Below the pieces are notes generated by a model. It was not told where the DNA came from. It ran no database searches and saw nothing but the letters and a program-made list of their open reading frames with translations. A stretch of DNA of 58,990 bases, counting the filler. It is 6 parts of 6 records of this genome, joined end to end, with 100 filler letters (N's around TTAATTAATTAA, not from the genome) between each part and the next. Parts side by side here need not be neighbours in the genome. Positions count along the whole stretch, not along the records: positions 23,141 to 29,680 come from SRR31156797_5500; 5 more parts are not named here. One strand, written 5' to 3'. This document shows, one piece after another, positions 12,560-43,514 of this stretch (position 1 is the stretch's first letter; every line of letters starts with the position of its first letter). Position numbers and translations under genes: made by a program.

Positions 12560-12659
12560 NNNNNNNNNNNNNNNNNNNNNNNNNNNNNNNNNNNNNNNNN
12601 NNNTTAATTAATTAANNNNNNNNNNNNNNNNNNNNNNNNNNNNNNNNNNNNNNNNNNNN
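12560..12659. other. artificial contig linker
   Basis: 44 N + TTAATTAATTAA + 44 N; abrupt composition change. Confidence 0.99.
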
Positions 12660-23040: not shown

Positions 23041-23140
23041 NNNNNNNNNNNNNNNNNNNNNNNNNNNNNNNNNNNNNNNNNNNNTTAATTAATTAANNNN
23101 NNNNNNNNNNNNNNNNNNNNNNNNNNNNNNNNNNNNNNNN
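23041..23140. other. artificial contig linker
   Basis: 44 N + TTAATTAATTAA + 44 N. Confidence 0.99.
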
Positions 23141-23167
23141 GCGGCGCAAGCTGTGTGGCTTAGTCAT
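23141..23167 (-). CDS. first 9 codons of a downstream gene (MTKPHSLRR), possibly a QseC/PmrB-type sensor kinase
   Basis: ATG 2 nt after the TPR gene stop; SLRR start is common in this kinase class; too short to be sure. Confidence 0.3.
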
Positions 23168-23169
23168 TC

Positions 23170-23805
23170 TTAGTCAATAGACCCTAGTAATTTGGCTATT
23201 TCTTGCTGCCTTCCAACGTCAGCCAGTGGACGGTCTGGTCGTGGTTTGGCATTTTGGGCTTTATTTAAGTAACTCATGGCTTCTTTTTTGCGCCCGTCTT
23301 GCGCTAGAAAATCCCCGTAAAAATAGTTGGGATCAATGCCATCTGGATTGATTTCAAGCGCTTTGAGTAGCATTTTTTCCGCCATTTCATCATCACCAAA
23401 TCCAATCGGCCACCCCGGTACTTGATAGTATAGCGAACCTAAGCTGGTATACGCAGAACCATTTAACGTTTCTGGCGCTTTTTCAATAACTTGTTCTAGC
23501 AATTTTTTAGCTTCTTTCACGAGGGAAAGCGCACCGAGCCCTCCGTCTGCTCCTGCTAACGAGGCTTTGTTAATCGCCAACCAAACTTTGAGCTCTTGAC
23601 GGTTGGGGTCCTGCTTTAGCGCTTTCTCGTTTCTCTTTATCAAGTTTTCTAAACAAAATACCTGATGATCACTGTCTTTAGATTCGTACTGACATACCGC
23701 CCACTTAGATTGAATGGTTTGCAATGGATCTGGCCCTCCAGCAAAAGCCGCCGGCACAAAAACGCCCTGTAATGTGACGATTGCCACCAGTAATGTGCGT
23801 TTCAT
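23170..23805 (-). CDS. exported tetratricopeptide-repeat protein
   Basis: Sec signal (PAAFA), GSAYTSLGSLYYQVPGWPIGFGD, ALEINPDGIDPNYFYGDFL TPR pattern. Confidence 0.85.
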   Translation of the reverse strand: MKRTLLVAIVTLQGVFVPAAFAGGPDPLQTIQSKWAVCQYESKDSDHQVFCLENLIKRNEKALKQDPNRQELKVWLAINKASLAGADGGLGALSLVKEAKKLLEQVIEKAPETLNGSAYTSLGSLYYQVPGWPIGFGDDEMAEKMLLKALEINPDGIDPNYFYGDFLAQDGRKKEAMSYLNKAQNAKPRPDRPLADVGRQQEIAKLLGSID

Positions 23806-23808
23806 AAT

Positions 23809-24618
23809 TTATTTCCCCTGCATCTGGTTAATAAAGTGATGAATCGTCTCTTGTTGCTTATGAATAGAGTGCGAAACAACCCCAGGTAAAATTTGGTTTA
23901 TCCGAGCAAAAAGCTTTTCTGGCCAGCCAATCCAACGAGCCGCCGTTTCGCTTTCCAGCATATTAACCACGTACATAGCGACACGCTCGGGAGAATCACT
24001 TTTGTTACCCAACTTTTCATTCATTTGATTCACAGAGCTACTGTTTAAGCCTGTGTTTGTCGCTCTCGGAGCTAAATAAAGCGTTCGAATACCAGTGCCA
24101 TCCAACTCTCGGTCTAACGCCTCACTAAAACGTTGCAAGCCTGATTTCGCGGCACAGTAAGTGGTGTAACCAGGGAAACCAATAGAACCAAAAGTCGACC
24201 CTATGTTCAAAATGATGCCAGGTCGGTTGACCCAAGATATCGCTGCCTGAGATAGCAAAATCGGTACAGTGAGATTCAAACGAACTTCCTGCTCGACGGA
24301 AGAAGTACTCCGTTGAGCCAAAAATGAAAACTGATTGCTGCCCGCATTGTTAATCAAGATATCAATCTTATTATTTTCATGAATCAGGCTTAGACATTGC
24401 TTCTTAAGATCTTCCATCCCCGCTTCGGTGGCTAAGTCCGCAGCGATAACATGATGCTGTTCAGGATGTTGTAAGCTGTTTCTCACCGCCTCTAACTTAC
24501 TGCAACTTCTGGAGACTAAAATTAAGTGAGCCCCTTTCGCCTCAAGTGCTTGAGCAATTTCACGACCTATACCACCGGAAGCGCCGGTCAACAACACACG
24601 TTTGTTATGCAAGTTCAT
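23809..24618 (-). CDS. short-chain dehydrogenase/reductase
   Basis: TGASGGIG, NNAG, GS, YCAAK catalytic motif. Confidence 0.93.
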   Translation of the reverse strand: MNLHNKRVLLTGASGGIGREIAQALEAKGAHLILVSRSCSKLEAVRNSLQHPEQHHVIAADLATEAGMEDLKKQCLSLIHENNKIDILINNAGSNQFSFLAQRSTSSVEQEVRLNLTVPILLSQAAISWVNRPGIILNIGSTFGSIGFPGYTTYCAAKSGLQRFSEALDRELDGTGIRTLYLAPRATNTGLNSSSVNQMNEKLGNKSDSPERVAMYVVNMLESETAARWIGWPEKLFARINQILPGVVSHSIHKQQETIHHFINQMQGK

Positions 24619-24627
24619 AATGACTCC

Positions 24628-25311
24628 TTAAGCCGCATTCTCTAAAGCGGTTGAAGTTAAGTCATGCAACATTTGGCCATACAGGTGAAAAACCATGTTA
24701 GCCGAATCGATGATTGCCGCCTGATCACGCTCATCGGTTATCTGGTTCATTAACTTTTCAAACAACTGGATATGATCTTGGTCTAATTCACTGTGCGAGG
24801 TTAAGTAGCTCATCGCGCTGTCTGGTAAGCTCAGTGTTTGTTTCACTAACTTAGCGACTTGTCCGCCGACTCCGACACTCGTACCTTCAAGCACCCAAAC
24901 CATACCAAAGAAGGCGATAGGGTTGCCTCTGTCGATTTGGTGATACAAATACGCCACCATCAATTCAATGGCTGAGCCTACCTTGCCTTCACCCAAATTC
25001 GCTCTCACAAAATCTGCGTTCGCACCACACGCTCGGATATCATTTAAAATCCATTCATGATGCCCCTTTTCTTCTTCAATATATTCACCTATCGCCTGAC
25101 GCAGCCATTCATAGTTTTCCGGCAATCGTCCACCACAAGCCATAAGCAGGGGAACAGTATGTTTAACGTGGTGAAACGCTTGAGTAAGAAATGCAACGTA
25201 AGTCTCTTTATCAATTTCCCCTCGAGCACAGGCTGCAAAGATAGGTGCTTGCAACATCTGTTGCTGAGCTTGCTGAGTTTGTTTTTGTAGAGTGTCGAAA
25301 AAGGCTGTCAT
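24628..25311 (-). CDS. heme-oxygenase-like diiron oxidase (TenA/PqqC/CADD fold)
   Basis: EEEKGH ... VLEG ... HSELDQDH metal-ligand pattern; all-helical 227 aa. Confidence 0.82.
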   Translation of the reverse strand: MTAFFDTLQKQTQQAQQQMLQAPIFAACARGEIDKETYVAFLTQAFHHVKHTVPLLMACGGRLPENYEWLRQAIGEYIEEEKGHHEWILNDIRACGANADFVRANLGEGKVGSAIELMVAYLYHQIDRGNPIAFFGMVWVLEGTSVGVGGQVAKLVKQTLSLPDSAMSYLTSHSELDQDHIQLFEKLMNQITDERDQAAIIDSANMVFHLYGQMLHDLTSTALENAA

Positions 25312-25322
25312 GGCAGTGTCCT

Positions 25323-26783
25323 CTATTCAATAAATTGTGTGGTGATGGTGCATGATTCGGACTGACTTTTGTTGCCAAATCGCTCCTCAAACAGCGTTCT
25401 GATTGGACGCCCATTGCTGGTGTATAGTCCTGATATACTTCTTAACTCAGGAGCAATAATCACCCTACCGATGTGAGCATAATCAGGCAGTGTCGAATTA
25501 AGCTTTCTTAATGACTCGGTCACTTGTTCAATATCTTGGTTTTCTAATACTGCAGTTAGGGTTTTATCGCCTTCTCCAAGCACCACCATGCCAAGTAACT
25601 CAGGAAATGCTTGAGCTTCAGACTCCACCCATTCAGGAGAAATGTTGCGACCAAAAGCAGTAATGATCTGGTTTTTCTTACGTCCACTGATGACTAGGAA
25701 ACCTTCTTCATCGAGATAACCTAAATCTCCTGTTGCCAGCCACGCTTGCTCAAAAGGTTCATTCACATAACCAAGTGCGGTATTTCCTGATACCCAGATC
25801 TCGCCATCATCGGCAATGTTGACATTCACGTGTGACAACGGTTTACCAGAGGTGCCCGCCTTGTTGGCTGAAGGGGTGTTAAGACTCACCACTGAAACAT
25901 TTTCTGAAAGGCCATACCCTTCGTATGCAGGAATGTTTAACTGGTGAGCGAGCTCGATCAGCTGTGGCGAAACTCGGGCTCCGCCAATCGCAACAAACTT
26001 TAGATTTTTAGTCACCACAGGCATGGATTTGGCGGCCCCAATTAAGGCCATCAATAGCGCCGGTGTTAGCACTATGGTGCTTGGCAAATGCTGAGCCAGC
26101 GCGAACGCAAACTGTGACGCATTAAATTGGCTAGAACCGGTTAAACCCACCGTTTTTCCACACACAACAACACTGGTTGTACCTAGTAATAAAGGCACAT
26201 AAATCCCGGTTATATTTTCCAGTAAGGTGGATAAAGGCAGTATCACCATATGCTTATCACAGGTTACGTCTGTAGCAATCGTGTCAGCCAATGTTCGGCT
26301 GATATTTGCAATCTGGTCTGAGCTCAAACACACACCTTTAGGCTGCCCAGTAGAACCTGACGTGAACGTGACTTTCGCTGTTTTGGGTAATAATTCTTGG
26401 GTAGACGGACAAGGCAGTTTCCATACGCATAAACGTTCCAACTCACCAACAAGAACCGGATGCCACTGCAGCCAATCACCAATCAACACATCAGCGCCAG
26501 ATTCTCTCAGAACATGATTTACCTGTAGCTGGGTAAAAAACATCGGCACTGGAACAATCGGGATGCCCGCGTACATAGCGGCTAAATCGATGATCGCCCA
26601 ATCAACACTGTTTTCTGCACGAAAAGCAATACATTGCGGCTTCAGTTCAAGAAGTTGCTCTGCCGCTTCTCTGACTTGCAGCAACAACTGTTGGTAAGTA
26701 ATTTCACAGCTATCATCAACAAATGCGACGCTGTCTGGCGAATGCGTGGAATGGTAAACCAACGATTGCAATACACAGTTCAT
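25323..26783 (-). CDS. AMP-binding adenylating enzyme (acyl-CoA synthetase-like)
   Basis: TFTSGSTGQPKG, YEGYGLSE, ATGDLG, GRKKN; ATGA overlap with upstream gene. Confidence 0.92.
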   Translation of the reverse strand: MNCVLQSLVYHSTHSPDSVAFVDDSCEITYQQLLLQVREAAEQLLELKPQCIAFRAENSVDWAIIDLAAMYAGIPIVPVPMFFTQLQVNHVLRESGADVLIGDWLQWHPVLVGELERLCVWKLPCPSTQELLPKTAKVTFTSGSTGQPKGVCLSSDQIANISRTLADTIATDVTCDKHMVILPLSTLLENITGIYVPLLLGTTSVVVCGKTVGLTGSSQFNASQFAFALAQHLPSTIVLTPALLMALIGAAKSMPVVTKNLKFVAIGGARVSPQLIELAHQLNIPAYEGYGLSENVSVVSLNTPSANKAGTSGKPLSHVNVNIADDGEIWVSGNTALGYVNEPFEQAWLATGDLGYLDEEGFLVISGRKKNQIITAFGRNISPEWVESEAQAFPELLGMVVLGEGDKTLTAVLENQDIEQVTESLRKLNSTLPDYAHIGRVIIAPELRSISGLYTSNGRPIRTLFEERFGNKSQSESCTITTQFIE

Positions 26784-27400
26784 AGCGCACCTCCACTATG
26801 ACGAAGAGCACGTTGCTCAAACAACGCATTGAGGTGACATAGCCCCTGTTTGAGGTTGCCAGCCACAATTCTTGGCTGATACTGGTAGTAGCTGCCCCAT
26901 ATTTCGGTCGCATTAGGAACTCTTGACGGATCCGCTTGTGCCAATGTGACAGTCTCAAGCCCTAAGCGAGACATCATGGCGTACAACGGATCGGTCGCAG
27001 TGAAAATGCACCATTCGTAGCCACTTTGGACCAAGAACTCTGTCATCAATAGAAAATGAACGGCTGAAAAGCCTTTTGAGAATGACGCTAGTTGACCAAA
27101 TTCTATCAACTCACTGCGATTGACTTGATTTCCATAAACGTGACTCAACAAGGTGTCTGCTGAAAGATCCAAATACTGTTCAAGGAACAGTGGCTCTTCA
27201 CTTGCCACTCGAAAACCGCACAAAGAGCGTATTTCTTCCCCTTCCACTAAGGCCATAAAAGTGGGCATGAATGCATCCAAATGAGCATCAAAAGCAAGGG
27301 AATAGCGTGCCGAGATGTAGTGTTCAACCGCTTTTCTTTGACTATGAGTACGGTCAACGATTTCAAGCTTAAACGGATGAGATTGACGAGCATCGGTCAT
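26780..27400 (-). CDS. 'thermostable hemolysin' (delta-VPH-like) family protein, likely GNAT-fold acyltransferase
   Basis: RY--AF-A, CGFR, PLFLEQYLD, IEFGQLAS, WCIFTAT, WGSYY-YQP family motifs; start at ATG 27400 (AGAGGG RBS). Confidence 0.85.
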   Translation of the reverse strand: MTDARQSHPFKLEIVDRTHSQRKAVEHYISARYSLAFDAHLDAFMPTFMALVEGEEIRSLCGFRVASEEPLFLEQYLDLSADTLLSHVYGNQVNRSELIEFGQLASFSKGFSAVHFLLMTEFLVQSGYEWCIFTATDPLYAMMSRLGLETVTLAQADPSRVPNATEIWGSYYQYQPRIVAGNLKQGLCHLNALFEQRALRHSGGAL

Positions 27401-27446
27401 AAACAAGCCCTCTGTATTTTCTATACTGAGAGCTTATTGGGAGAAA

Positions 27447-27482
27447 CTTAAGGAATACTTAAGAACAACAACTTATCTTAAG
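27447..27482 (-). promoter_or_regulatory. PmrA/QseB/BqsR-type response-regulator box
   Basis: CTTAAG-gaata-CTTAAG at 27447-27463 plus a third CTTAAG at 27477-27482, about 47 nt upstream of the operon start. Confidence 0.65.
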
Positions 27483-27489
27483 AAAAAAG

Positions 27490-27515
27490 AAAACGCTGCT
27501 CGAAAGCAGCGTTTT
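27490..27515 (-). terminator. rho-independent terminator of the helicase gene
   Basis: AAAACGCTGCT-CGAA-AGCAGCGTTTT perfect stem with T-run on the minus strand. Confidence 0.85.
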
Positions 27516-27525
27516 AAAATGGTGA

Positions 27526-28857
27526 TTACTCGTCGTCCGTCTTAGGAGCAACTTTCTTTTTCGGGATAAATACGTTATCCCCAACGGCCACATTTTGATA
27601 GAAGCTTTTATCGCGCTGAGCTGGCTTTTTAACCACTTTCTTCGCTTTCGCTTTAGAGGTTTTTGCCGTCTCAGCCTTACCTTTACGCACAGGTTGACGT
27701 GGCTTAATACCTTTAAACTTACCTTTAAGACCTTCTAACACGTCAAAGCTGATCTCTTGCTGTAGGAAAGCTTCAACTCGTTTAAAACTATCCCAGTCTT
27801 TCGGTCCAACGAATGAAACCGCATCACCCTTATTACCTGCACGACCAGTACGACCTACACGGTGCACATACTCTTCAGTGTGTTTTGGCATATCAAAGTT
27901 AATTACGTGGGTCACGTTCGCAATATCTAAACCGCGAGAAGCCACATCAGTGGTTACCAGAATCTTAAACACCGCACGCTCGAACTGGCTCATAATGGTG
28001 TTACGCTGCGCCTGATTTAAGTTGCCGCTTAACGCTACCGCTTTCAGTTTTTTCTCATTTAGCTTATCGGTCAGTCTTTCTGTATCAACACGGGTTGCAG
28101 TGAAAATAATCACCTGGCGGTAGTCCGATTGCTCCAAAACACGATCAAGCAACGCTTCTTTGTGGTCAAGGTGATCACACAAGTAGAAACGTTGGCTAAT
28201 GTCTTTGTGCTGTTCGTTAGATTCACCGATTGAAATACGCTTTGGCTCATTCAACATTTCATAAGCAATGTCGTTCACTTCGCCATGATCAAGCGTTGCA
28301 GAGAACATCAGTGTTTGACGACGACGATGCTTAGCGGCTTTGTGAATATGACGTAACTGAGGCGCAAAACCCAAATCAAGCATACGGTCAGCTTCATCCA
28401 GAATCAGAGTATCGACACCATCCAAAAACAAAGAACGATGTTCTAGGTGGTCAGCCAAACGACCGGGTGTCGCAACGATAAATCTTGGGTAGCGACGTAA
28501 AGCTTTTACCTGATCATTAAAGTTCTCACCACCAGTGATAAGCGTACCTGTGTAGCTTAAACCACCCAGCATAACGCGCAGCTCACCATAAACTTGTTTT
28601 GCTAGCTCACGGGTAGGAAGCAAAATCACAGCGCGAGGATCTTTAGCTGAAAACGCTTTTGACTTTAACGCCTTGTGCAGAGTAGGAAGCAAAAAGGCTA
28701 AAGTTTTACCCGAACCAGTTTTTGACGACGCCAAGATATCTTTGCCAGCAATGGCAACAGGAATGGCAACTTTCTGGATTTCAGTCGCTTGTTTGAAATC
28801 GTAATGAGCTAGGTTTTTCAACAAGCGATTATCTAAGCCTAAATCTTTAAACTGCAA
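27526..28857 (-). CDS. DEAD-box RNA helicase (SrmB-like)
   Basis: TGSGKT, PTRELA, TPGR, DEAD, SAT, HRVGRTGRAG; Lys-rich tail; TTG start with GGAG RBS. Confidence 0.95.
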   Translation of the reverse strand: MQFKDLGLDNRLLKNLAHYDFKQATEIQKVAIPVAIAGKDILASSKTGSGKTLAFLLPTLHKALKSKAFSAKDPRAVILLPTRELAKQVYGELRVMLGGLSYTGTLITGGENFNDQVKALRRYPRFIVATPGRLADHLEHRSLFLDGVDTLILDEADRMLDLGFAPQLRHIHKAAKHRRRQTLMFSATLDHGEVNDIAYEMLNEPKRISIGESNEQHKDISQRFYLCDHLDHKEALLDRVLEQSDYRQVIIFTATRVDTERLTDKLNEKKLKAVALSGNLNQAQRNTIMSQFERAVFKILVTTDVASRGLDIANVTHVINFDMPKHTEEYVHRVGRTGRAGNKGDAVSFVGPKDWDSFKRVEAFLQQEISFDVLEGLKGKFKGIKPRQPVRKGKAETAKTSKAKAKKVVKKPAQRDKSFYQNVAVGDNVFIPKKKVAPKTDDE

Positions 28858-29191
28858 AGGATTCTCCAAATCAGTGAGGTAGCCGAATCAAGTATGGCTA
28901 AACAAACAAAATAAAAACGCGGCATTATACCTAAGTAATAGATAGAGATCACAGAAAATAAACCCGTTGTGCTTATTAAATAGTATATGCACTAATGTCA
29001 AAAATAATGATAGAGTATCTCTTAGATTTAAGATTTCACACAATCATTTGATTCGCGGATAAAAATTTGGGTTATTTTGACTTTTCCCGATTAGGCGAAG
29101 CTTAAAATAGTGTCTACACTTTATTTCGTCACTATATGGAATAAAAATGTATAGGGCGTTTATGATACTTACTAAAATCAAGGAGTTCAGT

Positions 29192-29461
29192 ATGAACAAG
29201 ATGTTAATCGCAGCAGCAGCGTCTTCTGTACTATTACTAGCAGGTTGTGCATCAGGTCCAGACGAAGAAACAACAGCACAATTGGATGAACTAAACAGCC
29301 AAGTTAGCCAACTTAACGATGAAGTTGCGATGCTTAAGAGCGAACACCAAGCTCTAGATGCAAAAGCTTCTGCAGCGTCTGATTCAGCAATGGCTGCACA
29401 AGAAGAAGCAGCACGTGCTAACGAGCGTATCGACAACATCGCTCAATCTTACACAAAATAA
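29192..29461 (+). CDS. lpp: major outer-membrane lipoprotein Lpp/OprI family
   Basis: LAGC lipobox, EAARANERIDNIAQSYTK with terminal Lys; AAGGAG RBS. Confidence 0.92.
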   Translation: MNKMLIAAAASSVLLLAGCASGPDEETTAQLDELNSQVSQLNDEVAMLKSEHQALDAKASAASDSAMAAQEEAARANERIDNIAQSYTK

Positions 29462-29498
29462 GATTTCTAAATTAACGACTTCGGTAGTTGATTTTGTG

Positions 29499-29527
29499 AG
29501 CCTCCAATATGGAGGCTTTATTTTTTG
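29499..29527 (+). terminator. rho-independent terminator of lpp
   Basis: AGCCTCCA-ATA-TGGAGGCT followed by a T-rich run. Confidence 0.8.
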
Positions 29528-29680
29528 TGTTGAGCAAAGACAACCACTTAGTCAAAACATCCACAAAAATTAGACAGCTAACCTTCGGTAAACTGTCACA
29601 CCGCAAACTGGTACTGCTCTGCGAATCTTCGTTTTTCAGCGTACAAAGCTAACAATTGTTGCTGGGATTTATCGGCATTA

Positions 29681-29780
29681 NNNNNNNNNNNNNNNNNNNN
29701 NNNNNNNNNNNNNNNNNNNNNNNNTTAATTAATTAANNNNNNNNNNNNNNNNNNNNNNNNNNNNNNNNNNNNNNNNNNNN
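29681..29780. other. artificial contig linker
   Basis: 44 N + TTAATTAATTAA + 44 N. Confidence 0.99.
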
Positions 29781-30662
29781 ATCCATACCTTCCCAGCCAT
29801 CTGGTATATCTCTTGAGTGGAATGTAGCACGCATTGTATCGTTTGAAAATTCCTGTCCTGCTTCATTATCCACAGGCAGTAAAAGCTTTACACCTTTGCT
29901 TTCAGCCAGCTCCATCATCTCTTTAGCAAAATCAATTCTTTCAGGGTCTAACAGTGAATCTCCAATCTTGCCGCCAAGTGCCTTCTGGAATGTATAGCTC
30001 ATGCCTCCGCCTATTAGTAGAATATCAACCTTATCTAATAAGTTTTTGATTACACCTAATTTGTCTTTTACCTTTGCACCGCCTAGAATAGCAACAAATG
30101 GTCTCTGTGGATTTTCCAATGTTCCGCCGATGAATTCAATTTCCTTTTCCAGCAAGAAGCCCATTGCTGATGGCAGATACTCTGCAACACCGCAGTTAGA
30201 TGCATGTGCTCTGTGTGCAGTACCAAAAGCATCGTTAACATGAATTTCAGCAAGTGAAGCCATTTGCTTTGCCAATTCAGGGTCGTTCTTTGTTTCCCCT
30301 GCTTCAAAGCGAACATTTTCCAGCATTACCACTTCGCCCTCACCAACGTTAGCTGCCAATTCCTTTGCACTCTCTCCTACTACATCCTTTGCAAGTTTTA
30401 CTTCTTTGCCTAGTAATTCACCTAGTCTTTTGGCACATGGAGCCAATGAAAACTCAGGTTTAACTTCGCCTTTTGGTCTGCCAAGATGAGACATTAGAAT
30501 TAGTTTAGCACCGTTATCCAACAGGTATTTAATAGTTGGTAATGCAGCCTCTATACGGTTATCGTCAGTAATTACACCATCTTGCAATGGTACATTAAAG
30601 TCAACTCTAGCAATTACTTTTATTCCTTTTACGTCGATGTCTTTAATTGTTAATTTGTTCAT
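29781..30662 (-). CDS. pgk: phosphoglycerate kinase, 3'-truncated
   Basis: [43 protein letters not shown]. Confidence 0.98.
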
Positions 30663-36432: not shown

Positions 36433-36532
36433 NNNNNNNNNNNNNNNNNNNNNNNNNNNNNNNNNNNNNNNNNNNNTTAATTAATTAANNNNNNNNNNNN
36501 NNNNNNNNNNNNNNNNNNNNNNNNNNNNNNNN
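36433..36532. other. artificial contig linker
   Basis: 44 N + TTAATTAATTAA + 44 N. Confidence 0.99.
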
Positions 36533-43414: not shown

Positions 43415-43514
43415 NNNNNNNNNNNNNNNNNNNNNNNNNNNNNNNNNNNNNNNNNNNNTTAATTAATTAANNNNNNNNNNNNNNNNNNNNNNNNNNNNNN
43501 NNNNNNNNNNNNNN
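43415..43514. other. artificial contig linker
   Basis: 44 N + TTAATTAATTAA + 44 N. Confidence 0.99.

Follow-up and report, generated by a model that had tools for sequence, protein, structure and literature searches.

A five-gene operon in the 58,990-nt stretch of DNA analyzed here (the window) is led by the gene for a "thermostable hemolysin" of the T_hemolysin/delta-VPH family, which we call Thl. Our reading, a tentative one that stops a little short of an even call, is that the five genes constitute one N-acyl-amide-type enzymatic pathway under PmrAB-type envelope control and are not a toxin locus. What carries it is the predicted fold of Thl, the persistence of the gene set in distant bacteria, the two-component system encoded directly downstream in close relatives, and a PmrA-format box shared with eptA, the gene for a lipid A-modifying transferase. 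The window joins six unrelated contigs (segment GC 0.52, 0.29, 0.44, 0.35, 0.30, and 0.42), and the genomic surroundings of the operon are confined to the third of these, 6540 bp at positions 23141-29680; the 5.3-Mb genome of the closest relative (G001) serves as a stand-in for whole-genome context.

Organization of the operon

The five genes are co-oriented on the minus strand (23170-27400) and encode, in order, Thl, an adenylating enzyme, a heme-oxygenase-like, probably dimetal, oxidase (HDO), a short-chain dehydrogenase/reductase (SDR), and an exported tetratricopeptide repeat (TPR) protein (Table 1). A first-pass annotation of the sequence by a model had proposed five tightly coupled genes of these families, and all are present, joined as it described by an ATGA overlap and then, in gene coordinates, by gaps of 11, 9, and 3 nt. 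Its further claims that a terminator isolates the operon from upstream read-through, that the operon has a regulator box of its own, and that a carrier protein is missing from view are borne out as well: the terminator lies at 27515-27490, the box is present and unique in the window, and the conserved gene set encodes no carrier protein. The open reading frame (ORF) listing starts Thl at a TTG (27406), and the family alignment favors the ATG at 27400. The ATGA overlap amounts to translational coupling of Thl and the ligase in the window; across 35 loci, the two overlap in 24 and are separated by 0-20 nt in another 10.

Thl as a predicted acyltransferase

Thl matches PF12261 (T_hemolysin) at 200.5 bits against a cut-off of 27, over profile positions 2-173 of 174. 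The R-Y...G-R...E-GQLA...FTAT pattern, in which the first-pass annotation had seen a resemblance to GCN5-related N-acetyltransferase (GNAT), FeeM, and LuxI acyltransferases, is real: R34, Y35, G64, E102, F103, G104, L106, T136, and T138 are invariant among 51 close homologues (R-Y/G-R/E-F-G-Q-L-A/F-T-A-T). With 20 distant orthologues added, the invariant set shrinks to G64, E102, W170, G171, Y173, and P178. The N terminus is hydrophilic, in agreement with the annotated lack of a signal peptide.

The AlphaFold model of Thl (pLDDT 90.9, pTM 0.87) allowed the Foldseek comparison that had been proposed for 26780-27400, and the predicted structure agrees with a GNAT/LuxI/FeeM fold. LasI is the top match (E 4.6e-8), followed by TofI, MesI, FeeM, RpaI, BjaI, and EsaI; generic GNATs rank behind these LuxI/FeeM synthases. 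Ordinary acetyltransferases reach at most 12.8 against the model, over about 132-139 residues. Membership of the LuxI/FeeM sub-fold of the GNAT superfamily is thus what the model gives for Thl. By sequence, identity to N-acyl homoserine lactone (AHL) synthases is 7-13%, and a Pfam scan of Thl returns no Autoind_synth (LuxI) or FeeM match, PF12261 being the sole family at E 0.01 or better. One neighboring Atlas cluster carries the FeeM label on 12% of its members, which is a lead only. A search of the PDB with a profile of the 51 homologues found no solved relative (best E 0.37); fragments of the mTOR FRB domain that came up as candidate relatives are chance matches, with E no better than that value.

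Thl accordingly looks like a cytoplasmic GNAT acyltransferase of the LuxI/FeeM kind that lies outside the LuxI and FeeM sequence families, as far as a model can place it. A secreted pore-forming hemolysin would be marked by other features, and Thl has no export signal, no toxin-family Pfam match, and an enzyme fold. In a Psychromonas metagenome-assembled genome (MAG), the Thl gene is in two overlapping pieces in different frames near a contig end (L021:8001-8497), which suggests a frameshift or an assembly error.

Ligase, oxidase, reductase, and TPR protein

The adenylating enzyme matches PF00501 at 155 bits. In a comparison of the window enzyme with 39 orthologues, motifs A3 (TSGSTGxPKG), A5 (GYGLSE), A7 (TGD), and A8 (GRxK) are invariant or nearly so in all 40 sequences. 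Structures of MenE are matched at E 2.5e-23. Because the enzyme scores far below the NCBIfam cut-offs for both menE (164.5 bits vs 330) and long-chain fatty acyl-coenzyme A (CoA) ligase (FACL; 158.9 vs 476), its acid substrate cannot be read from these models. A motif T-x-N-G-(R/K)-P-x-R, equated to A10 by motif resemblance only, has Arg in 35 and Lys in 5 of the 40 sequences. In the window it spans 25407-25430 (ligase residues 455-462), with Arg where the catalytic Lys of ANL enzymes usually stands.

The HDO matches PF14518 at 107 bits against a cut-off of 28.9. Residues H47, H48, E80, E81, H84, E142, H173, D177, and H180, including the HxxxDxxH spacing, are invariant in 20 diverse orthologues, and since this set of His, Glu, and Asp fits a dimetal site, the HDO probably has one. 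Its model (pLDDT 89.1) aligns with template modeling (TM) scores of 0.84 to 3dde, 0.80 to CADD, about 0.76 to bacterial heme oxygenases, and 0.73 to UndA. Sequence similarity is clear to 3dde (E 1.3e-19), the uncharacterized Shewanella protein Sden_3740, and marginal to CADD (E 1.5e-3). Canonical heme oxygenases carry the proximal, heme-ligating His on the first helix. Here no His before residue 47 is invariant, which may speak against a canonical heme oxygenase; PF01126 covers residues 123-217 only, and HmuO matches by fold. Self-sacrificial chemistry of the CADD kind was also considered and is unlikely as such, with F25 of the HDO aligned opposite CADD Tyr27, which we take to be the sacrificial residue.

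The reductase exceeds the cut-off of NCBIfam NF006565 (363 bits vs 238) and carries conserved TGxxxGIG (TGASGGIG) and YxxxK (YCAAK) motifs, as classical SDRs do. The TPR protein begins with a hydrophobic, cleavable-looking signal peptide that ends in AFA before GG. Its best natural match is the sterol-binding protein BstC (PDB 7t1s, E 3.3e-7, residues 45-170); against the BstC model NF045602 it scores 33 bits, with a family cut-off of 350. Neighboring Atlas clusters carry RMD1-3 and TRAP T-component labels. Together these similarities suggest a periplasmic binder of a hydrophobic ligand.

Synteny, spread, and gene fusions

Evidence that the five genes belong together is apparent well outside the window. 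A scan of one genome per species yielded 21 close loci in Vibrio, Photobacterium, Psychromonas, Moritella, Motilimonas, Thorsellia, and Psychrobacter, in 19 of which the five genes are colinear, the remaining 2 being cut by contig ends. Twenty distant loci were picked for spread of genome size among the sampled genomes positive for PF12261, and all 20 keep the same order, with Thl identities of 26-52% and GC contents of 0.41-0.69. The synteny on which the first-pass annotation had made its pathway proposal depend is therefore conserved in 39 of 39 loci with enough DNA, far beyond Vibrio. The HDO is the best conserved of the five proteins (47-95%).

A profile search returned 1712 representative clusters of the Thl family at E 1e-3 or better. 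Of the 401 genomes sampled from the phylum, 100 contain PF12261, as against none of the 14 controls. The matches fall mostly at every fourth, later every third, sample handle and mostly in genomes of 1.3-3.1 Mb; this unevenness implies that one subgroup carries the family almost always, and 100 of 401 is no estimate of prevalence.

In 11 of the 39 loci the ligase and HDO form a single ORF of 684-788 residues, and Pfam finds both domains in all four fused ORFs that were tested. To our knowledge, no characterized HDO is fused to an ANL enzyme. The fusion ties the two steps more closely than did the linear scheme of the first-pass annotation, and such natural fusions offer enzymologists a new pairing of adenylation with heme-oxygenase-like, probably dimetal, chemistry. 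In Pseudoalteromonas, two acyl-CoA synthetase genes have been reported beside the hemolysin gene (PMC6262041).

The cassette also occurs bare, as the five genes only, on a mobilizable Citrobacter freundii plasmid (NZ_CP026058, locus L074) and on the conjugative Vibrio parahaemolyticus plasmid pLH214-1 (L075). The Citrobacter copy adjoins genes for a heavy-metal sensor pair, a flavodoxin, a DUF4405 protein, a cupin, and a carboxymuconolactone-decarboxylase-family protein, and a cytochrome b561 gene lies beside the V. parahaemolyticus copy (L075:6151-6699). Just upstream of the cassette in two distant loci, L064 (5051-6850) and L065 (7700-9514), are genes for an ArnT/PMT-like glycosyltransferase, a GT2, or a DedA/VTT protein; downstream in L065 are a second TPR paralogue and an HMG-CoA reductase gene.

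A two-component system and a box shared with eptA

In two close relatives (L001 and L013), the TPR gene is followed after 2-3 nt by a gene for an OmpR-family response regulator (RR) and then by an overlapping gene for a histidine kinase (HK) with 2CSK_N, HisKA, and HATPase domains. The pair stands directly behind the TPR gene in all 19 close loci, and 11 of the 20 distant loci have it within 7 kb; neither plasmid cassette adjoins such a system. The description of the locus as an orphan cluster is upheld in part only. No product has been assigned to this type of cluster in the full-text literature searched, from which most subscription papers fall outside. Self-contained it is not, being in Vibrionaceae-type relatives the front of a seven-gene operon that ends with RR and HK, and the true operon end lies outside the window.

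The best NCBIfam models for the RR are PmrA (251 bits, cut-off 330) and then QseB (216, cut-off 345), and those for the HK are QseC (209 bits, cut-off 475) and then PmrB (173, cut-off 314), all of them below cut-off. The operon RR has no close paralogue in G001, where the next regulator shares 41% identity with it and reaches 180 bits against the PmrA model. A motif E-x-x-E-(V/I/L)-(Y/F)-D follows the first membrane helix in 27 of 30 aligned kinases; it seems to be common to 2CSK_N sensors at large and gives no clue to the ligand.

Upstream of Thl, the tandem CTTAAG-N5-CTTAAG lies 47-63 nt before the ATG at 27400, with a third CTTAAG 14 nt further upstream. It is the single match in the 58,990 bases of the window, and none of 100 shuffles gave one. 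In its arrangement, a direct repeat of two xTTAAx hexamers with 5-bp spacing ahead of the gene, it has the format of a PmrA-type operator: Salmonella PmrA boxes are described as CTTAAG and xTTAAT half-sites 5 bp apart (PMC3973317), and the Acinetobacter box as HTTAAD-N5-HTTAAD (PMC9431647). In 17 of the 19 close loci an exact box stands 36-131 nt upstream of Thl, and the remaining 2 deviate from it at a single position; the strict form YTTAAK-N5-YTTAAK precedes Thl in 8 of the 20 distant loci. A sigma-70 consensus scan upstream of the operon on the minus strand found no match, as is usual for activator-dependent promoters. An Rfam His_leader hit at 27399-27528 on the minus strand (34.5 bits against a gathering threshold of 49, E 0.009) spans the terminator hairpin and its T run and is probably due to chance.

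The box also occurs elsewhere. G001 contains four exact boxes, with none for a reversed-pattern control: before this operon, before eptA, before a pepSY-cytochrome b561 pair, and inside a TRAP/TAXI transporter locus. At eptA the box lies 48 nt upstream of the gene, whose product is a phosphoethanolamine--lipid A transferase (581 bits vs a cut-off of 500). The pepSY and cytochrome b561 pair with the same box is at L081:4034-4856 (G001 contig 17). In two V. hepatarius loci (L009 and L010), eptA comes directly after the kinase gene, with a second box in the spacer between HK and eptA, and in Thorsellia (L018) it is divergent from Thl, with two boxes between them. The box thus precedes eptA in four relatives.

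Published neighborhoods fit alongside these arrangements. Vibrio genomes have cytB-pepSY-eptA-dgkA neighborhoods, and the eptA gene of V. cholerae, VCA1102, is accompanied at +1/+2 by a separate kinase/regulator pair described as "still uncharacterized" (PMC12064563). The block VCA1102-1111 is listed for all V. cholerae and V. metoecus strains examined and for no V. paracholerae strain (PMC8357300, Table 3). Within it, VCA1110 is DthC and adjoins the dth hemolysin gene (PMC12208996), and VCA1105 is a response regulator with reported induction in infant rabbits and differential expression in infant mice (PMC4441509). The cassette is linked to eptA, then, by the box, by adjacency, and by co-inheritance (PMC12064563, PMC8357300). 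CarRS was considered as the operon regulator and rejected; in V. vulnificus, CarR is reported to bind GACA-N6-TACA, beside dgkA-eptA (PMC10433830).

A possible pathway and the evidence against it

In the pathway that we propose, the adenylating enzyme would activate a fatty or aryl carboxylic acid. The CoA thioester is the likeliest form, given that CoA-dependent synthases are among the nearest folds to Thl. Thl would move the acyl group onto an amine to form an N-acyl amide. The HDO, using O2 at its putative dimetal site, could make or tailor the acyl substrate, and the SDR could contribute keto/hydroxy redox chemistry. Once in the periplasm, the hydrophobic product may be bound or carried by the exported TPR protein, which is BstC-like. 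A PmrA/QseB-like regulator would switch on the operon via the CTTAAG-N5-CTTAAG box, together with eptA, and the hemolysis seen with cloned delta-VPH/dth may be a surfactant-like side effect of the product. Because the operon runs on into a gene for a PmrA-like regulator and shares its box with eptA, the product would most likely be an envelope-stress output of the acid, metal, or cationic-peptide type. Gene content, folds, synteny, the fusion, the box, and the link to eptA come directly from the sequence analysis; the substrates, the product, the sequence of steps, the envelope role, the pairing of regulator and box, and the origin of hemolysis are what we infer in this scheme.

A bolder form, in which an O2-tailored N-acyl amide (a lipo-amine or aryl-amide) of a class not yet described is passed to a periplasmic TPR carrier as an ancient core output of PmrAB/QseBC envelope control, common across Pseudomonadota, is rather unlikely in our estimation. 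If it were true, the amide would protect against metal, acid, or cationic-peptide stress alongside lipid A phosphoethanolamine, and the ligase-HDO fusion would be a new coupling of adenylation to dimetal oxygen chemistry. Synthesis of ornithine lipids by the locus was considered and set aside; V. cholerae is reported to use the OlsF homologues VC0489 and VCA0646 for this (PMC12186959).

Several observations weigh against an envelope-controlled amide pathway. Eight of the 20 distant loci, small-genome loci among them, have no RR or HK match within 7 kb, and L070 has a weak RR match only. The strict box is absent in 12 of the 20, including three that have the two-component system, and in small-genome loci the cassette sits among housekeeping genes, which speaks against a universal link to PmrA. 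The RR scores below the PmrA cut-off (251 vs 330 bits), and that the operon's own regulator binds the box is again something we infer. In V. vulnificus, eptA is reported to be driven by CarR via a different motif (PMC10433830). As to the enzymology, the operon encodes no carrier protein or exporter, the order of the steps is guesswork, and Arg at the A10 lysine position in 35 of 40 sequences implies that the chemistry of the ligase may be atypical. Hemolysis by single-gene clones could be an intrinsic activity of the protein.

Expression data count on both sides. When P. alcaligenes was grown in fungal-exudate medium, the ligase gene was 389-fold up, HDO 373-fold, SDR 318-fold, TPR 107-fold, and the regulator 38-fold (PMC8304167, Table 4), a joint rise that favors our reading. 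The authors of that study consider the cluster to serve beta-oxidation and found the ligase gene to be needed for growth on exudate (PMC8304167); induction together with this requirement fits catabolism or detoxification too. Assembled contigs, 90-99% alike, cover parts of all five genes in run X16, which is recorded as RNA, and in X15 and X17, for which RNA is only guessed, and one X16 contig spans the SDR/TPR junction. These contigs are weak RNA evidence that we do not count as expression, and gaps in their coverage are meaningless.

Alternative explanations

The same genes could be read as an autoinducer circuit: a diffusible acyl-amide signal, the output of the four enzymes, would be perceived by the periplasmic TPR protein together with the QseC-like kinase, and the regulator would act back on the operon via the box, making a synthase-plus-sensor operon in the style of agr, phc, or cqs. 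Quorum-signal synthases, the CoA-dependent RpaI, BjaI, and MesI among them, are the nearest folds to Thl; the best model for the kinase is QseC; and a single operon, preceded by an operator, holds the synthase genes, kinase, and regulator in all 19 close loci. We nevertheless regard such a circuit as improbable. Eight distant loci and two plasmids keep the cassette without the system nearby, and a ninth distant locus (L070) has a weak RR match only, so the product must serve some purpose besides signaling to it; the box of this operon probably also drives eptA, which remodels the envelope; and Thl matches neither the Pfam LuxI nor the FeeM model. A role in conjugation, detoxification, or catabolism, likewise improbable in our judgment, would have the ligase activate an exogenous fatty or aromatic acid, taken from the environment or a host, for Thl to conjugate to an amino compound, by the activate-then-conjugate logic of the mammalian acyl-CoA ligase/glycine N-acyltransferase pathway, or would have the set feed beta-oxidation. 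Cascades of a CoA ligase and a GNAT are known in detoxification (PMC8003330), the P. alcaligenes cluster rises 38- to 389-fold in fungal exudates and its ligase gene is required for growth (PMC8304167), a V. cholerae vca1110 transposon mutant is reported to show altered elongation of a fed C13 fatty acid (PMC12208996), and the plasmid copies lie amid stress and redox genes. However, neither an exported TPR protein, conserved in all 39 loci, nor an O2-activating HDO that occurs fused belongs to beta-oxidation or simple conjugation. The conserved set includes no thiolase, enoyl-CoA hydratase, or acyl-CoA dehydrogenase, which speaks against catabolism, and in one sampled subgroup with small genomes the cassette is almost constantly present, amid housekeeping genes.

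A metal-handling amphiphile would be a special case of our main reading: the HDO would N-oxygenate an amine and Thl would acylate it with the product of the ligase, and the resulting lipid, of the hydroxamate type, would bind Fe(III) or a different metal in the envelope. PmrAB responds to Fe3+, Al3+, and mild acid in enterobacteria, and the two-component system here is of the PmrAB kind. The pepSY-cytochrome b561 pair shares the box, the Citrobacter plasmid copy adjoins a heavy-metal sensor pair, several HDOs are N-oxygenases, and the fold matches of Thl include the GNAT Rv1347c, which we take to be that of mycobactin synthesis. The Pseudoalteromonas cluster is also reported to include a high-affinity iron transporter (PMC6262041). 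We still judge this special case highly improbable: N-oxygenation cannot be read from any of the sequences, the HDO is closest to the uncharacterized 3dde and the 4-aminobenzoate synthase CADD, and no siderophore-type receptor or exporter is conserved with the cassette. What the historic name would favor is a genuine protein hemolysin, with the delta-VPH-family protein itself damaging membranes and the neighboring genes unrelated. Hemolysis by E. coli clones was reportedly described by Taniguchi in 1990 and by Fallarino in 2002 (the latter cited in PMC12208996), which counts for a true hemolysin; by its title, the V. cholerae paper in the reference list of PMC12208996 concerns a gene without direct contribution to virulence, which counts against one. 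Such a toxin is hardly credible for a protein that has no signal peptide and the fold of a compact enzyme, whose gene is coupled to that of a ligase and syntenic with three further enzymes across the phylum, and whose family is present in many genomes of 1.3-3 Mb.

Comparison with known systems

Each part of the operon has a better-studied counterpart. LuxI-type AHL synthases such as RpaI (6wn0), BjaI (5w8a), and MesI (6wns) use an acyl-CoA donor, which suits the CoA-ligase-like neighbor here, and LuxI-type enzymes including LasI (1ro5) share with Thl an invariant Glu in the central strand region (E102 in Thl). The two differ in that Thl is 7-13% identical to these synthases, lacks an Autoind_synth match, and has a C-terminal WG-YY-P motif peculiar to its own family; LuxR-type receptors, moreover, are absent here. 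FeeM (PDB 2g0b) uses acyl-acyl carrier protein (ACP) from a dedicated carrier, whereas there is no carrier gene here and no Pfam FeeM match for Thl. In E. coli, surfactant or antibacterial phenotypes result from the cloning of N-acyl amino acid synthases, and clone phenotypes of this FeeM-like kind would explain the "hemolysin" phenotype of Thl.

With respect to regulation, the pmrCAB operon of Salmonella and Klebsiella places effector genes ahead of pmrA-pmrB in one autoregulated operon, as here, with the five genes in the place of pmrC. P. aeruginosa likewise has polyamine biosynthesis genes upstream of pmrAB (PA4773-PA4775-pmrAB). Both pmrCAB and the present system combine CTTAAG-type hexamers 5 bp apart with co-regulation of eptA (PMC3973317, PMC9431647). 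The effectors here, by contrast, are GNAT, ligase, HDO, SDR, and TPR proteins, the regulator is below the PmrA cut-off, and the kinase has a large, QseC-like periplasmic domain.

The HDO has the fold and the conserved carboxylate and His positions of the heme-oxygenase-like dimetal oxidases CADD (1rcw, 8va9), UndA (4wwj), and Sden_3740 (3dde), with significant sequence similarity to 3dde only. BstC, the periplasmic sterol binder of Methylococcus, resembles the TPR protein in being exported and in standing beside lipid-making genes; the TPR protein is far below the BstC cut-off, and no BstA or BstB partner is found here. The mbtK-N module of mycobactin synthesis consists of the FadD33 ligase, a carrier, the GNAT MbtK (Rv1347c, 1yk3), and a dehydrogenase. 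It has in common with the cassette an adenylating enzyme, a GNAT that lipidates an amine, and redox tailoring, and MbtK is among the fold matches of Thl. Unlike the cassette, it has a carrier, an acyl-ACP dehydrogenase, and a nonribosomal peptide synthetase/polyketide synthase siderophore context, and neither an HDO nor a TPR protein.

The genes, the name, and remarks on the neighborhood are already known for V. cholerae (the "dth region"), Pseudoalteromonas, and P. alcaligenes. The fold, the phylum-wide synteny, the ligase-HDO fusion, and the PmrA-box link were not found in the full-text literature searched, with the same restriction on subscription papers, and no paper among the matches listed combines "thermostable hemolysin" with LuxI, FeeM, or GNAT. 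New with respect to the first-pass annotation are the limits set by the contig joins, the continuation into RR and HK in 19 of 19 close relatives, and the PmrA-format box shared with eptA. Many genome surveys of Vibrio and Aeromonas list the "hemolysin" gene as a virulence marker; its product is most likely a metabolic acyltransferase, and tallies of virulence genes that include it may mislead accordingly. The cassette is among the more widespread enzyme sets without an assigned product, and its PmrA-type and eptA link would put the metabolite in the regulon that governs tolerance of polymyxin and cationic peptides.

The contig and its surroundings

The contig that carries the operon is colinear with a Vibrio sp. 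MAG (L001), at 86.9% identity over 6435 bp. The Lpp-like lipoprotein gene and the DEAD-box helicase gene, its other occupants (Table 1), are at the same places in the four closest relatives.

Table 1. Features of the window and ligase-HDO fusion loci in relatives
Feature	Position	Strand	Remarks
T_hemolysin/delta-VPH protein (Thl), 206 aa	26780..27400	-	PF12261, E 2.3e-59
ANL-superfamily adenylate-forming ligase, 486 aa	25323..26783	-	PF00501, E 3e-45
Heme-oxygenase-like, probably dimetal, oxidase (HDO), 227 aa	24628..25311	-	PF14518, E 1.2e-30
Classical SDR, 269 aa	23809..24618	-	adh_short, E 6e-39
TPR protein, 211 aa, Sec signal peptide	23170..23805	-	TPR_19 and related
PmrA-format operator	27447..27482		Tandem CTTAAG-N5-CTTAAG 27447-27463 plus third CTTAAG 27477-27482
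Candidate -10 hexamer TATAGA	27420..27425	-	Putative; 21 nt downstream of box
Intrinsic terminator of DEAD-box helicase gene	27490..27515	-	11-bp stem, 4-nt loop, T-rich tail
DEAD-box helicase gene	28869-27526	-	Upstream neighbor of operon
Lpp-like lipoprotein gene	29147-29461	+	Same contig as operon
Contig tail	23141..23169	-	29 nt after TPR stop codon; operon cut here
N..TTAATTAATTAA..N linkers	12560-12659, 23041-23140, 29681-29780, 36433-36532, 43415-43514		Artificial joins between contigs
Linker	23041..23140		Artificial junction of operon contig to unrelated contig, GC 0.29
Linker	29681..29780		Closes 6540-bp Vibrio contig
Ligase-HDO fusion loci	L007 (8585-10798), L008, L011, L014-L017, L019, L062, L063, L068

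At the operon end of the contig, the tail has an ATG 2 nt past the TPR stop codon, as in L001, and its nine codons differ from the N terminus of the regulator. Contigs from four public runs match the window up to about 23180 and then diverge, which makes the tail unreliable, and the contig end at 23141-23180 may be chimeric. A direct repeat, TGACTAAG, is present there in two copies (23141-23180).

A tRNA scan of the window found none. ORFs that enter the linkers are artifacts of the joins, as with a phosphoglycerate-kinase-like ORF at 29733-30662 that has X residues at its end.

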